From the NCBI GenBank assembly GCA_039028495.1, contig JBCCHY010000003.1, positions 1-49,839 of the forward strand: a stretch of DNA of 49,839 nucleotides, in the 5' to 3' direction. Made by a program: the position numbers and the translations under genes. Under the pieces are notes generated by a model, which did not search any database, was not told the origin of the DNA, and worked only from the letters and a program-made list of their open reading frames with translations. Shown here in pieces: positions 2,889 to 45,099 of this stretch. This stretch comes from Patescibacteria group bacterium. GTDB lineage: Bacteria; Patescibacteriota; Saccharimonadia; Saccharimonadales; VXPC01. Numbering within the stretch: the stretch's first letter is position 1; every line of letters starts with the position of its first letter.

Positions 2889-3614
2889 TTACATAGTGAC
2901 ATCTGCTTGTTTCGCAATTGTAGCTATCTGCTCCATCACAAGCGCTGTATCTGCTCCACGCAAGTTTGTCAGGTTTTTACCTATAACTTCACTAAAACAA
3001 TCTCTTTGTGAGATTAAATCACGCACAAAAAACGGCATCCGGAATGTTGTAGGTCGTACGCATTTGAGCACGCTTCTACCGAGGCGAGTTTTAGTAGCTC
3101 CAGTGTGGGCAGTTTCTGAGGTAAGAGTCATGTAATGCTGATTGAAGCGAGCGAGCATCAGCACCGGTAACCCAGATGCTGGTAATGTTAGTACGGAAGA
3201 TTCTCCATAAATTCTTGCTTTTTGCAGTCCTACTGCTCTTTCGTCTTCATCCAGTATGAAGGATACATCTTGGCAAGCTTCATTTGGATCTAGGGCATTG
3301 TTTAGCGCCTTCAAGAACATCGGCTCTGCACTCATGCAAGAATGAAAATCCTTTGTTGCCGATCGATGGCTCGGAATATTCGAATAGCAAAGTGCTAGCT
3401 GCGCGAGTGCCGAACTTGAGTTTCTCATGTGTTCAGGTTGCTTCTGACCAAGCAGCATTATCAGACGAAGTGCACGGTTGTATTCCTCGTCATAAGACTT
3501 ATGAGGTAGATAGTAGTCACCGGTTGCTGCTAGGAATTCAGCGGGGGCATCTGCATGTAAGCCATCGATCAGCTTTCTACGAGTTCGATTTCTCTCGTTG
3601 GCACTTATTTGCAT
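2889..3614 (-). CDS. Hypothetical protein
   Basis: 241-aa ORF upstream of tRNA-Leu on the same strand; no motif recognised. Confidence 0.6.
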   Translation of the reverse strand: MQISANERNRTRRKLIDGLHADAPAEFLAATGDYYLPHKSYDEEYNRALRLIMLLGQKQPEHMRNSSSALAQLALCYSNIPSHRSATKDFHSCMSAEPMFLKALNNALDPNEACQDVSFILDEDERAVGLQKARIYGESSVLTLPASGLPVLMLARFNQHYMTLTSETAHTGATKTRLGRSVLKCVRPTTFRMPFFVRDLISQRDCFSEVIGKNLTNLRGADTALVMEQIATIAKQADVTM

Positions 3615-3726
3615 CTACAACTCGCTAGGAGGCCTTGTGCCGGTAAAGCTAGAGTAGGCACTACATTTGATGATCGCATCTTGGCTAAACAGTACACCAA
3701 AAGTCGCTATAGAAAAAACATGAGCA

Positions 3727-3755
3727 TTGACGAAACGTCCTATATAAGTTATGGT
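3727..3755 (+). promoter_or_regulatory. Sigma70-type promoter of the hisS leader
   Basis: TTGACG-17 nt-TATGGT; leader ATG 7 nt downstream. Confidence 0.7.
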
Positions 3756-3762
3756 ATGTCTA

Positions 3763-3810
3763 ATGAGTAAACTACATCTACATATCAAACCGGAGGTTTC
3801 CCGAGGTTAG
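3763..3810 (+). CDS. Putative His leader peptide MSKLHLHIKPEVSRG
   Basis: 15 codons with two CAT codons, between the promoter and a terminator upstream of hisS. Confidence 0.7.
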   Translation: MSKLHLHIKPEVSRG

Positions 3811-3838
3811 GGTGTAGATTTTTATTGTCTTAATCCTT

Positions 3839-3863
3839 AAGCCGGGGCACCCCCGGCTTTTTT
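3839..3863 (+). terminator. Attenuator terminator upstream of the hisS operon
   Basis: AAGCCGGGG-CAC-CCCCGGCTT followed by a T run. Confidence 0.85.
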
Positions 3864-3912
3864 GTTCTGTAATTAAGAAAATAATGTAAGAAACTTTTGA
3901 AGGAAATTAGAC

Positions 3913-4167
3913 ATGAATATTACGTACGAAACAATTAAAGAAGAAGCCGCAATGGTTGGTCCACCGGTCATCGGTGTTTGTTTTAGGGAGCCTAACACAT
4001 ACACATTCGATCGTAGGACCGATCCAAGCTCCCCAGACTACAATCCCAGGACAGCAGATCTAGGGCTTATGCCGCCAGATGTTGTTCCGATAACTAAAGA
4101 ACAGGCCTTTGAGCTAAATGCTATAGCTAAAGCTGCTAGAATAGAGACAGGTAAACAAAATGGCTAA
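3913..4167 (+). CDS. Hypothetical His-free protein overlapping the hisS start
   Basis: 84 aa; GAAGGA SD-like site upstream; 8-nt overlap with hisS. Confidence 0.65.
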   Translation: MNITYETIKEEAAMVGPPVIGVCFREPNTYTFDRRTDPSSPDYNPRTADLGLMPPDVVPITKEQAFELNAIAKAARIETGKQNG

Positions 4168-5452
4168 AGTAAAAGTACAAAACTACAAAGGCACGAGGGA
4201 TTTCTACCCAGAGGATAAGCGCCTACAGAAATACGTTTTTAACATATGGCGCAGTGTCTGCGAAAGATATGGCTACGAAGAAGTAGACGCGCCTATGCTT
4301 GAGCCATTAGAGCTCTACCAGATGAAAAATGGTGCAAACCCGGACATGATCAAGGACGAGCTCTATGCGTTAACGGACAAATCTGGACGAGACCTTGTCG
4401 TCAGACCAGAAATGACACCGACTGTCAGTCGTATGGTTGCAGCGAGACGGCAAGAGCTCCAGTACCCAGCACGCTGGTATAGCATTCCAAATCTGTGGCG
4501 CTATGAGCGCCCACAAAAGGGCCGCCTACGCGAGCACTGGCAGCTGAATGTCGACATCTTTGGCCAAGACGGACTACAGGCAGTGTTTGAGCTACTACAG
4601 ATTGCAAATGACATCGTTGTGGGCTTAGGTGCTGAGACTGGCATGTATACGATCAGGATTAACAGCCGCAAGCTAGTTAATAAACTATGTGAGTTGCTTA
4701 GACTTTGTGAGCCTGAGGCAAGTGCTCTCATGCAGCTGATAGATAAAAAAGCAAAGATGCCTATTGAGGAGTATGATCAGAAGTTTAATGAACTTGTAGA
4801 TGGTGACGCTGCTATGAAATCTCTCATTAATGAATTCTTGGCTGCCACAAGCTACGACGAGCTACCAGAAGAGCTCAGGAATACAGATGAAGCGGCCGAG
4901 CTACGACAGCTACTAGACTCATGCAGCGATAATATGATGGAATCGGTCGTATATGATCCCTTAATCATGAGGGGGTTTGACTACTACACAGGTTTCGTAT
5001 TCGAGGTTTTTAACGAAGATCTGGAGAATAACCGTGCCATGCTCGGCGGCGGAGAGTACGATGGGCTTGTAGGAGCCATGGGGGCAGAACCGTTACCTAC
5101 AGCTGGGTTTGGGATGGGCGATGTAACCGCAATTGATTTCATGCAGTCGCAGGGCACCTTGCCGGAACTTTGGAACGAAACAGATATTTACTTCGTCGTG
5201 CTAGAAGGGTCACTTGAGGCTGCACAAGCAGCCATCAGAAAGCTTAGGCAAGGCCCCAGGATAAATGTTGCCGTAGATAGTACGTATCGAAAACTATCTA
5301 AATGCCTAGAGTCGGCTGACAAGCGAAAAATTCGCTATGCCCTCATCTGCGGGGAAAACGAAGTCAAGAGTGGTCAGTACCAGCTGAAAGATCTAAAGAC
5401 AGGTGAAACGTTCACGATGGATCTAGACAAAATCGCGCAAGCCCTACGCTAG
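4160..5452 (+). CDS. hisS: Histidyl-tRNA synthetase
   Basis: KGTRDFYP, RPEMTP, RYERPQKGRLREH, RGFDYYTG, GGGEYDGL (usual GGRYD has R->E), C-terminal anticodon-binding domain. Confidence 0.97.
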   Translation: MAKVKVQNYKGTRDFYPEDKRLQKYVFNIWRSVCERYGYEEVDAPMLEPLELYQMKNGANPDMIKDELYALTDKSGRDLVVRPEMTPTVSRMVAARRQELQYPARWYSIPNLWRYERPQKGRLREHWQLNVDIFGQDGLQAVFELLQIANDIVVGLGAETGMYTIRINSRKLVNKLCELLRLCEPEASALMQLIDKKAKMPIEEYDQKFNELVDGDAAMKSLINEFLAATSYDELPEELRNTDEAAELRQLLDSCSDNMMESVVYDPLIMRGFDYYTGFVFEVFNEDLENNRAMLGGGEYDGLVGAMGAEPLPTAGFGMGDVTAIDFMQSQGTLPELWNETDIYFVVLEGSLEAAQAAIRKLRQGPRINVAVDSTYRKLSKCLESADKRKIRYALICGENEVKSGQYQLKDLKTGETFTMDLDKIAQALR

Positions 5453-43271: not shown

Positions 43272-43299
43272 TTGACTTCCGTTCTTTGCCTGTTATCAT
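43272..43299 (+). promoter_or_regulatory. Promoter of the trpS leader
   Basis: TTGACT-16 nt-TATCAT with TGn extension; leader ATG 8 nt downstream. Confidence 0.7.
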
Positions 43300-43307
43300 T
43301 ATTGTCA

Positions 43308-43391
43308 ATGAAAATTCTACAGAACAGCTATCTCTGGCTGCTACTCACTTCACGACCTGTGGCGGCTTATTCTGTTTGCTTTAAAAACTAA
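43308..43391 (+). CDS. Putative Trp leader peptide MKILQNSYLWLLLTSRPVAAYSVCFKN
   Basis: 27 codons, single TGG at 43335-43337; contains the antiterminator arm TGTGGCGG (43358-43365). Confidence 0.65.
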   Translation: MKILQNSYLWLLLTSRPVAAYSVCFKN

Positions 43392-43413: not shown

Positions 43414-43441
43414 AATCCGCCACACTAAGGCGGATTTTTTT
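43414..43441 (+). terminator. Attenuator terminator upstream of GNAT-trpS
   Basis: AATCCGCC-ACACTAA-GGCGGATT followed by a T run. Confidence 0.85.
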
Positions 43442-43462: not shown

Positions 43463-44072
43463 ATGAAATATCAAATAATGAACAAACAACCTGATCTAGC
43501 AGAAGCAGCAAAGGTTGTTGCACAGGCAATGCCAGGCCTAGAACCAGATGGGGTAGTCGCTGATACGGCGGCGCACATTAACGGTAACTTTATTCAGTCA
43601 ATACATTCTAATAGCGGCTTAGTGGGATTTGCAAATTACGAAGTAACGGAGTGTTTTTGGCGATAGACTACTATACCTAGCGGGGAGAGCAGTATTACCC
43701 AGACACCAAGGCAAGGGGTTGGGCACTAAAGCTTTAAAGAATGCTATAAATGAAATAGCACCGGACTACCTATTCACCGTCAGCAGAAACCCATCGATAG
43801 TCAAGATGATGTTGAAAGCTTCAGGTGCATCTCTAAGTCATCTATACCCAATTGCATCGACAATTGAACACAGAGTTATAGACTTTTGTGCAAGAGGTGC
43901 TGGCGTACCACATTCTACTAGACCATATCATTTCAACAGGTACGGTGAGAGCGGCTTACAAGGTGATTCTCTACCCATGAGCGACGATCCAAACCTAGCT
44001 CCCTATTTTTCTAACGCCACATTAAAGTCGACTGGCATATTAATGATAATCAAGTGTAGCGAAAGGTGTTAA
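43463..44072 (+). CDS. GNAT-family acetyltransferase split by a +1 frameshift (programmed frameshift or pseudogene)
   Basis: AAGGAG SD; frame 0 ends ...TGT TTT TGG CGA TAG (43666); the +1 frame from 43659 reads GDRLLYLAGRAVLPRHQGKGLGTKAL (motif A) to TAA 44072. Confidence 0.7.
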
Positions 44073-44073
44073 A

Positions 44074-45099
44074 ATGATAGCAATGAATGACACAATACTA
44101 ACAGGTTTACAGCTCACAGGTAGTCTACATCTAGGTAACTATCTTGGCGCTGTCTTGCCCATGGTTGACATCCAAAAGGCTGGCCATACAGTCTATATGT
44201 ACGTTCCAGATATACATGGTTTGACAGCTGATGTAGACTACTCATCTTTCTACGAGAGGACTGTCGAGTTTTTACGTTTGTACGCAGCCGCAGGCTTAGA
44301 TCTGACAAGCGATGACCTAATCCCGTTTAGGGGTAGCCATGTGCCAGCACATTCAGAGCTTGCATGGATTCTGACCTGCTTTACAGGTATGGGCGAGCTA
44401 GAGAGGATGACACAGTACAAAGACAAGTCATCGAGAGCTAATACCCACATAAGTTCAGGCCTACTAACGTATCCAACGCTTATGGCAGCAGATATACTCC
44501 TATACGGCGCAAAGTATGTGCCTGTTGGCGAAGATCAGCAGCAGCATCTCGAGCTCACCAGAGTACTAGCTAGGAGGCTAAACAACAGGTTTGGCGAATG
44601 CCTGGTAGAGCCTGCCGACCATGAAGCAAATCTGGCCTTTTTTGAGACGGAGAATGCCGTCCGTATCCGCAGCCTCTCTGACCCGACCTCAAAAATGAGT
44701 AAAAGTGTGTCAGACCCCAAAGGCACTATAGGTCTACTAGATGATCCCGAAGATGCTCGCAAGAAGGTGATGTCTGCGGTTACAGACGATCTAGGTTCGA
44801 TTAGCTTCGACTTCGTAAACCAGCCCGGTATATCTAACTTGATTCAGATCAAAGCGCTGCTAGAGGGCAAAAAAATAGCTGATGTTGCCGCAGAATATGT
44901 TGGCCACACACAGTACGGCCAGTTTAAATCAGATGTAGCCGATGCTGTCGTGGACTTCTTGAGCAACCTACAAGCTGAGTTTGCTAGGATCAACCCTGAC
45001 TCTGTAACTAAAGAACTACATACGGGTGAGGAAAAGGCCAATGCAGCTGCAAACGAGACACTCTACAGGCTACAGCGAGCAATAGGCCTCAGGCAGTAA
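44074..45099 (+). CDS. trpS: Tryptophanyl-tRNA synthetase
   Basis: HLGN (HIGH), YPTLMAADIL, VPVGEDQQQH, KMSKS. Confidence 0.97.
   Translation: MIAMNDTILTGLQLTGSLHLGNYLGAVLPMVDIQKAGHTVYMYVPDIHGLTADVDYSSFYERTVEFLRLYAAAGLDLTSDDLIPFRGSHVPAHSELAWILTCFTGMGELERMTQYKDKSSRANTHISSGLLTYPTLMAADILLYGAKYVPVGEDQQQHLELTRVLARRLNNRFGECLVEPADHEANLAFFETENAVRIRSLSDPTSKMSKSVSDPKGTIGLLDDPEDARKKVMSAVTDDLGSISFDFVNQPGISNLIQIKALLEGKKIADVAAEYVGHTQYGQFKSDVADAVVDFLSNLQAEFARINPDSVTKELHTGEEKANAAANETLYRLQRAIGLRQ

Follow-up and report, generated by a model that had tools for sequence, protein, structure and literature searches.

A conserved histidine leader upstream of hisS in Candidatus Saccharimonadales, a probable leader-peptide attenuator

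The histidyl-tRNA synthetase (HisRS) gene hisS of a Patescibacteria group bacterium of the order Saccharimonadales (assembly GCA_039028495.1, contig JBCCHY010000003.1) is preceded by an open reading frame (ORF) that is short and contains His codons, an intrinsic terminator, and an ORF for 84 amino acids, here called ORF84. The window, by which we mean the whole stretch analysed, comprises positions 1 to 49,839 of this contig (49,839 nt); the source genome amounts to 0.90 Mb in 48 contigs and is 96% complete. An earlier note on this DNA had proposed that the short ORF is a leaderless His leader with a terminator/antiterminator switch before hisS. Features, conservation and covariation agree with that proposal: the sequence features named for the hisS leader all lie where they were placed, and each of the named pairings was recovered by folding. 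What we observe are the sequence features of the leader, its conservation, its linkage to hisS and his genes, and the covariation of its competing helices. We conclude, with a probability of roughly 0.85, that the leader is a classical ribosome-mediated leader-peptide transcription attenuator that senses charged tRNA-His and controls read-through into ORF84 and hisS.

The leader locus in the window

The features of the locus, all on the forward (+) strand, are as follows.

3727-3732 (+): -35 box TTGACG, from a consensus scan; TTGACA-like boxes also occur upstream of relatives' leaders
3750-3755 (+): -10 box TATGGT, separated from the -35 box by a 17-nt spacer and ending 7 nt before the ATG
3763-3810 (+): leader ORF of 15 codons plus TAG (MSKLHLHIKPEVSRG), with ATG at 3763 and stop codon at 3808-3810; homologous peptides occur in relatives
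3775-3783 (+): putative regulatory codons CAT-CTA-CAT (His-Leu-His), with CAT at 3775-3777 and 3781-3783, the second being the near-invariant His position of the family
3776-3783 (+): region 1 (AUCUACAU), which pairs with 3812-3819 in the minimum-energy fold
3788-3796 (+): segment B (AACCGGAGG, Lys-Pro-Glu codons), which resembles the 5' arm of the terminator and is complementary to its 3' arm
3800-3819 (+): region 2, made of the last codons, the stop codon and 9 nt more; its partner is region 1 or region 3, by family covariation
3823-3830 (+): conserved unpaired spacer box TATTGTCT, seen in alignments between the leader stop codon and the terminator
3835-3846 (+): region 3 (CCUUAAGCCGGG), which overlaps the 5' arm of the terminator and forms the antiterminator with region 2
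3839-3865 (+): intrinsic terminator AAGCCGGGG-CAC-CCCCGGCTT followed by a T run; stem 3839-3847 / 3851-3859, nine pairs of which seven are G-C, loop CAC
3900-3904 (+): Shine-Dalgarno-like AAGGA, 8 nt before the start of ORF84
3913-4167 (+): ORF84, 84 aa, an orphan without His and with gene-like codon usage, overlapping hisS by 8 nt
4160-5452 (+): hisS, histidyl-tRNA synthetase, 430 aa (Pfam tRNA-synt_His, 2.8e-44; HGTP_anticodon, 1.6e-10)

The gene upstream of the leader (2889-3614) lies on the opposite strand and is divergent, so that no upstream gene ends at the terminator, which has the promoter before it and the next genes after it. Taken alone, the leader promoter match is no more than chance would give (in 3 kb, 4 such matches were present and 4.6 expected); its weight derives from conservation across the leader family. 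The sole promoter-like match past the terminator (3908-3935) overlaps the start of ORF84. No other promoter route to hisS is recognisable, which supports the predicted control of hisS by the leader. One idea for the spacer box TATTGTCT is that it acts as a pause signal.

The leader family and the genes it precedes

Relatives whose HisRS is just 41-53% identical to that of the window nevertheless carry short ORFs with the same core upstream of their hisS. The first homologous leaders came from four genomes, two belonging to the window's own family and two to others. A loose pattern, CATNTNCATANNNNNCCGG, gave 73 matches in 71 of 401 genomes of the order, against about 33 matches for a reversed control; when 30 of the loose-pattern loci were fetched, a short ORF and terminator were present in 18 and absent in 12. 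The exact pattern retrieved 49 loci from public genomes, and 47 of these had both short ORF and terminator. By label, 44 of the 49 are Candidatus Saccharibacteria, Saccharimonadales or Saccharimonadia, two are Patescibacteria group, two are ‘bacterium’ or ‘uncultured bacterium’, and one, on a 5.4-kb contig, is Limnocylindrales. Overall, ORF and terminator occur together at 69 of the 83 loci examined.

Both patterns, the window and the hisS loci of three relatives together yielded 58 unique leaders. Their peptides are 15-23 aa long in 57 cases, with 2-5 His; the last was read as 80 aa, likely through a miscalled start. The peptide consensus is ..NQHHLHI[LS]PE.[LVI]G, from which the window and the two genomes of its own family (G003 and G004) form a divergent branch (KLHLHIKPEV, NLHLHISPEA, KLHLHIQPVV).

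The His-His core in these loci is fixed by the search patterns, and a covariance model was therefore built for an independent search. The model, made from 56 leaders, was run against 151 genomes of the order with E up to 0.001. It matched 54 of them, usually once per genome, so that the ‘lineage-wide’ strategy envisaged by the earlier note is too broad a description. Forty regions hit by the model were fetched, picked by eye as lying outside the pattern-found set. The earlier note had staked its reading on conservation of the His codons, and conserved they are: the model alignment places CAT at the invariant His position in 37 of these 40 pattern-independent hits. When the ORF richest in His was taken from each hit, a few picks being visibly in the wrong frame, 38 of 40 had 1-3 His, encoded by CAT 65 times and by CAC 11 times; the long ORFs of the window's genome use the two codons about equally (1701 CAT versus 1530 CAC). 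The leader is one of a family that is conserved in Candidatus Saccharimonadales.

The leader ATG at 3763 starts 7 nt past the -10 box, which would imply a leaderless transcript with a 5' untranslated region of 0-1 nt. Of the 58 unique leaders, 48 have a TAnnnT hexamer whose end lies 5-10 nt ahead of the start codon; among 5763 further ATGs of these loci, taken as controls, the share is 9.6%. A Shine-Dalgarno-like 4-mer precedes just one of the 58 leaders but 39 of 56 first downstream ORFs. From the -10 spacing and the scarcity of this motif we argue that translation probably starts right at the 5' end of the RNA, the leader ORF being apparently translated without a leader of its own.

These regularities bear on whether a ribosome is the sensor at all. 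Antitermination could be brought about instead by uncharged tRNA-His, in T-box fashion, or by a His-sensing RNA-binding protein, with the ORF incidental. The available text of PMC2965389 describes hisS as usually T-box-controlled in Firmicutes; CAU could be the specifier here, and the last His codon is always CAT, a constraint at the nucleotide level. Yet the other His positions use CAT and CAC alike, and 57 of the 58 unique leaders combine three ORF features: the start codon stands at a fixed spacing to the -10 box, the ORF runs to 15-23 codons, and the stop codon falls within region 2. No T-box was matched in the window or the genome: Rfam, run over the whole window at gathering score, returned three tRNAs only and no leader family, and a whole-genome search with the T-box model (RF00230) gave no match among 20 candidates scored. 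The Rfam His_leader (RF00514) was likewise not among six weak, unrelated matches obtained with E up to 10 for positions 3600-4250. Finally, the leader is only ~100 nt long, and T-box leaders are longer than this. We consider ribosome-free antitermination very improbable.

Linkage to histidine genes is close. In 17 genomes hisS was located and the model matched. Fifteen of them have the match on the strand of hisS, 42 nt-3.8 kb upstream of it; the two exceptions are G029, on a 1.5-kb contig, and G009, which has the weakest match. As for the 58 unique loci, 14 have hisS no more than 200 nt on and 26 have it past other ORFs, while in 18 it is absent from the ~1.5 kb covered. We scanned 54 ORFs downstream of leaders (the first one or two past the terminator at 43 loci) with Pfam. 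Enzymes of His biosynthesis (HisG, HisD, HisF/H, HisI) account for 22 of the 54, and the matches are distributed as follows.

HisG, several fused to PRA-PH: 16 ORFs
Histidinol_dh: 3 ORFs
His_biosynth, one with GATase: 2 ORFs
PRA-CH: 1 ORF
SLOG cluster 4: 4 ORFs
AstE/AspA-like: 3 ORFs
Peptidases (S66, M20, M15): 5 ORFs
DUF6282: 2 ORFs
Nucleoside hydrolase: 1 ORF
No Pfam family: 17 ORFs

Because his-biosynthesis genes stand behind the leaders, we take this to be the family of leaders that heads the his operon in Saccharimonadales, an operon in which hisS is often included. Some of the relatives' ‘hisS’ matches that come after HisG could be the paralogue HisZ.

Searches of the window's genome for HisG, histidinol dehydrogenase and HisA/F found none of them, while each search was positive in 14 of 14 control genomes; with completeness at 96%, absence of His biosynthesis is likely, not proven. 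There the leader now serves only ORF84 and hisS. The earlier note had seen in this layout a design for tuning aminoacyl-tRNA synthetases to scavenged amino acids. Since relatives' leaders often head his-biosynthesis genes that are undetected here, we read the synthetase-only arrangement as a leftover, one that looks like a remnant after pathway loss.

Three further observations concern these operons. In genomes of several families, the ORFs that stand between His leader and hisS repeatedly include SLOG cluster 4 (LOG-like) proteins (L019, L025, L085, L090). ORFs matching HisG are preceded by a separate ORF of 45-61 aa at seven loci (L040, L057, L061, L086, L091, L107, L110), and in L040, L086 and L110 the HisG match starts only at profile position 42-49 of 158, which suggests that hisG may be read in two frames in many Saccharimonadales. 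In one genome a 29-aa fragment 72% identical to the HisRS N-terminus directly follows the leader (G032:C1:90404-90490), with the full hisS 3.8 kb downstream; it appears to record an insertion of genes into the operon.

Competing helices and the proposed switch

Two mutually exclusive partners exist for region 2. ATCTACAT (3776-3783) is complementary to GTGTAGAT (3812-3819), and folding 3762-3868 to minimum energy gives this region 1:2 helix together with the terminator (-32.3 kcal/mol, z = -2.54; 6 of 200 shuffles do as well). CCCGAGGTTAGGG (3800-3812), which spans the TAG stop codon, pairs with CCTTAAGCCGGG (3835-3846) once the 3' arm of the terminator is omitted, and with the His region of the window's leader masked, region 2 pairs with region 3. 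Folds of 21 leaders agree in most cases. The full RNA gives a helix between the His codons, or codons before them, and the stop-codon region, plus the terminator; masking the His region in an RNA that still lacks the 3' arm makes the last ORF codons pair with the distal 5' arm and loop of the terminator. For nine of these 21 leaders, folding the full length gave a different minimum, a long helix that includes the terminator region.

Comparison across relatives bears out these alternative pairings (1:2, 2:3 and terminator) and fits the proposed switch. An alignment-free permutation test compared each of 57 unique leaders' own duplex partners with mismatched ones. The region 2:3 duplex scored -12.5 kcal/mol with its own partner and -9.5 with mismatched partners, and the region 1:2 duplex -11.2 versus -9.9; in neither case were any of 2000 permutations as good. 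The control duplex between regions 1 and 3 made no difference (-5.0 versus -4.8 kcal/mol; 295 of 2000 as good).

RNAalifold on the leader alignment gave the terminator only, and the other helices were scored with supplied structures. In a MAFFT alignment, the antiterminator columns have 72.8% of cells paired, against 67.7 +/- 1.2 when shuffled, and 34 cells changed on both sides, against 18.9; none of 500 shuffles was as good by either measure, and the optimum is at zero slide. For the terminator and region 1:2 helix columns the figures are 90.1% of cells paired and 41 compensatory (doubly changed) cells, again with 0 of 500 as good. The terminator pairs are intact in 96% of cells, six of the nine showing compensatory changes, and the helix AACTAACC:GGTTAGTT of the family is paired in 80% of cells. 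The last ORF codons covary with the terminator loop, GATCGG occurring with CCGGATC, GTCGG with CCGGAC and CTCGG with CCGGG, and GCTTGTCGG pairs off with CCG(A/G)..CAAGC (loop CAAGC) in L056, L064, L092 and L096. The loop columns are imperfectly in register.

A free-standing small transcription unit, either a small RNA or a gene for a 15-aa peptide with its terminator, could merely adjoin hisS: promoter, short ORF and strong terminator make a complete unit of ~100 nt. Elsewhere attenuator-derived small RNAs can act in trans, as the text available for rnTrpL of Sinorhizobium indicates (PMC6614838). Three findings argue against such a unit: hisS or his genes are linked to the leader, on its strand, in 15 of the 17 cases where they were located; a covarying helix sequesters the 5' arm of the terminator; and hisS has no other recognisable promoter. 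We therefore rate a unit independent of hisS as highly improbable; a role in trans could exist in addition to the role in cis.

The leader has the features of a leader-peptide attenuator: an ORF with cognate codons, a terminator, an exclusive antiterminator, a 1:2 helix, and genes for the same amino acid downstream. We infer the start of transcription, translation of the ORF, the geometry of the ribosome footprint and the response to His starvation, and propose the following course. Transcription would start at the ATG (3763) or 1 nt before it, and a ribosome would load on the 5' end without a Shine-Dalgarno sequence. With ample charged tRNA-His, the ribosome would run to the TAG (3808-3810) and cover region 2 (3800-3819); region 3 would then be free for region 4 (the 3' arm), the terminator (3839-3859 plus the U run) would form, and RNA polymerase would stop. 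With charged tRNA-His scarce, the ribosome would stall with CAU (3775-3777 or 3781-3783) in the A site, covering region 1 and probably segment B. Region 2 would pair with region 3 (3835-3846) before the 3' arm is made and so hold the 5' arm of the terminator, and polymerase would continue into ORF84 and hisS. Without translation, region 1 would pair with region 2 and the terminator would form.

Several points weigh against this course. With the His region of the window's leader masked, the full-length minimum still keeps the terminator (-24.9 kcal/mol, against -18.5 for the antiterminator form), so that read-through must rest on the order of folding; we assume such a decision here. The trp attenuator is likewise decided by order of folding. 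The region 1:2 helix of the window uses the His codons themselves, while the family consensus uses codons just upstream (AACTAACC with GGTTAGTT), and with its 5' strand shifted in this way the window's helix is not strictly homologous to that of the family. The long helix formed by segment B and the codons after it still abuts the U run and may either stop or permit transcription. There are just two His codons here, and relatives go down to one; the E. coli his leader has seven. As to the covariation, the sequences are related and the shuffle controls keep their shared ancestry, and many alignment columns are invariant by construction because the loci were fetched by sequence patterns.

In a further variant, the conserved nascent peptide H-x-H-I-x-P-E-x-x-G, or its codon context, would itself slow or halt translation, so that a single His codon would do and segment B would be masked directly by the halted ribosome. 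Conservation of the peptide reaches seven residues beyond the His codons, several relatives have a single His, and segment B keeps a constant distance from the invariant CAT. Segment B has the consensus GCCGGAG, nearly invariant in the family, copies the 5' arm of the terminator and is complementary to the 3' arm; together with the next codons it is complementary to the entire terminator, and this long alternative helix is seen in folds. The last His codon lies 6 nt upstream of segment B, and a stall there would put the ribosome over it. The codons after the His, however, double as strands of the competing helices, and constraint on the RNA alone suffices to account for their conservation. L057 has an earlier stop codon and yet retains GGTTAGTT out of frame, so that this segment appears constrained as RNA. 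We regard assistance by the peptide as improbable.

A tentative elaboration of the attenuator, which we think rather unlikely, is a double lock. As few as one invariant CAU, never CAC at this site and a fixed 6 nt before segment B, might be enough for the sensor; a ribosome stalled there would mask segment B while region 2 captures the true 5' arm, possibly with help from the nascent peptide, and in leader-bearing lineages HisRS may have become poor in His so that it could be made when His-tRNA is scarce.

Downstream genes, the trpS leader and known systems

HisRS composition. The product of hisS is the only HisRS homologue found in the genome. As the earlier note had pointed out, it has a single His in 430 aa; the residue is H126. 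His makes up 2.0% of residues in ORFs of at least 150 aa, and just 10 of the 325 ORFs of at least 300 aa are as His-poor as HisRS. Among 43 distinct HisRS sequences from the loci the count ranges from 0 to 12, with a median of 5. In 30 genomes classed for presence of the leader the median is 2 His with the leader (n = 11) and 7 without it (n = 19; Mann-Whitney p = 2e-4, a statistic that ignores shared ancestry). We treat the association of the leader with His-poor HisRS as a lead only.

ORF84. The absence of His and the overlap with hisS are as the earlier note had described them. The overlap, of 8 nt, is typical of coupled genes, and a Shine-Dalgarno-like site stands ahead of ORF84. Its codon score of 0.26 per codon (0.21 for hisS, 0.34 for tig) exceeds those of all 787 antisense stop-free stretches; codon usage thus speaks against a non-coding spacer, though without settling the matter. 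ORF84 has no Pfam family, no second copy in the genome, and no likeness to the ORFs that relatives carry in the stretch from leader to hisS (best E 0.26). A search of 5.8 billion clustered proteins for homologues of comparable length returned only ORF84 itself, and none turned up among longer proteins, for which the search is weak evidence. Its best Atlas hit scores 0.81, below the threshold for a lead, and the Atlas's own model has a pLDDT of 0.53. ORF84 is a probable lineage-specific small protein, to judge by its sequence, and not a conserved partner of the switch. The ORFs between leader and hisS vary from genome to genome. With no homologue of ORF84 found, the ‘co-regulated starvation proteins’ once suggested for this position lack support as a trait of the lineage.

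The trpS leader. A second leader of this kind lies upstream of trpS in the window.

43272-43299 (+): Trp leader promoter, TTGACT, 16 nt, TATCAT, with TG before the -10 box
43308-43391 (+): Trp leader ORF, 27 codons, with one TGG (43335-43337)
43414-43441 (+): Trp leader terminator and T run, stem 43414-43436
44074-45099 (+): trpS, class I W/Y synthetase family, 341 aa with 1 Trp

GTGGCGG (43359-43365) is complementary to the 5' arm and loop of the terminator, CCGCCAC (43417-43423). The parallel with hisS drawn in the earlier note stands in part: leader, promoter and terminator are real, and a 117-aa ORF downstream has no Trp, but the 67-aa ORF before it and TrpRS have one Trp each. Ten of 29 trpS loci of relatives have candidate Trp leaders, defined by a Trp-containing short ORF 5-10 nt past a -10-like hexamer and just before a terminator. 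In eight of the ten the peptide is centred on W-F/Y and the terminator stem has a CCGCC core.

Between the Trp leader and trpS (43463-44072) lie the 67-aa ORF and, in a different frame, a 134-codon stop-free stretch. The segment has a weak match to Acetyltransf_1 (E 6e-4, 20.5 bits against a cut-off of 20.7) and looks like a GNAT acetyltransferase split by a frameshift.

Other synthetases. Starting from 90 strict terminators genome-wide, we obtained nine candidates with a leaderless short ORF and terminator, of which only those at hisS and trpS are plausible cognate-codon leaders before a synthetase. The design being confined to these two genes, the organism has no general synthetase strategy of the kind once supposed. 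Two candidates were set aside. On contig C40 the terminator at 4756-4786 follows an upstream GreA-like ORF and makes no third attenuator at the LysRS-like gene; it is a 13-pair bidirectional terminator between the two (both named by eye). A Trp-rich ‘leader’ on contig C19 reads, by eye, like a translated tRNA gene.

Significance. Ultrasmall CPR (candidate phyla radiation) bacteria encode few regulators, and to our knowledge gene regulation in Saccharibacteria and the others has hardly been studied. A conserved attenuator defined by sequence would mean that such cells, dependent on hosts as they are, go on monitoring the charging of tRNA, and that a leaderless ribosome does the sensing. The family also offers a new cis-regulatory model for annotation pipelines and marks Saccharimonadales that keep His synthesis as against those that have lost it, and at ~100 nt it would be a compact natural switch for asking how few regulatory codons an attenuator needs. 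If the link between leader and His-poor HisRS survives correction for ancestry, the composition of the enzyme would be adapted to the condition of its own induction.

Comparison with known systems. Full-text literature on attenuation in Saccharibacteria and CPR bacteria, in the parts available and with subscription journals outside its coverage, yielded no such element. The enterobacterial hisL (RF00514) and trpL leaders likewise combine a short ORF of cognate codons with helices 1:2, 2:3 and 3:4 and a terminator before genes for the same amino acid, and relatives' leaders in the present family precede his-biosynthesis genes as hisL does. The present leader differs in having no Rfam match, in its few His codons (1-5 in the family, two in the window), in being apparently leaderless where those are Shine-Dalgarno-led, in its Saccharimonadales (CPR) host, and in that hisS is its only known cargo in the window's genome.

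Attenuation of synthetase genes by leader peptides has precedents, whether established or predicted. The text available for PMC1262725 describes it for trpS and leuS of Streptomyces and cites pheST of E. coli; that for PMC2965389 places a His leader upstream of a hisS paralogue and hisZ in Bacillus, hisS proper having a T-box. In these, as here, classical attenuation acts on a synthetase gene, the hisS family and trpS included, but they belong to a different phylum and their leader sequences are unrelated; a leaderless start is not among the features described in those portions of the sources. Leaderless short ORFs of polycysteine are described, in the accessible part of one report, as Cys-responsive attenuators in mycobacteria (bioRxiv 10.1101/834739). 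As in the reading proposed here, they are a first cistron of cognate codons that tunes a downstream operon to amino-acid supply; as far as that part goes, theirs concerns Cys and genes of Cys metabolism, whereas the leader described here has an explicit, covarying terminator/antiterminator pair.

The T-box riboswitch (RF00230), the usual control of hisS and trpS in Firmicutes, likewise responds to whether the cognate tRNA is charged and lifts termination in a leader before a synthetase gene, but there the tRNA is bound directly, whereas in the leader described here, which lacks a T-box match, a translating ribosome would be the sensor. The mechanism is one already known; the leader family that uses it in Saccharimonadales is apparently undescribed.

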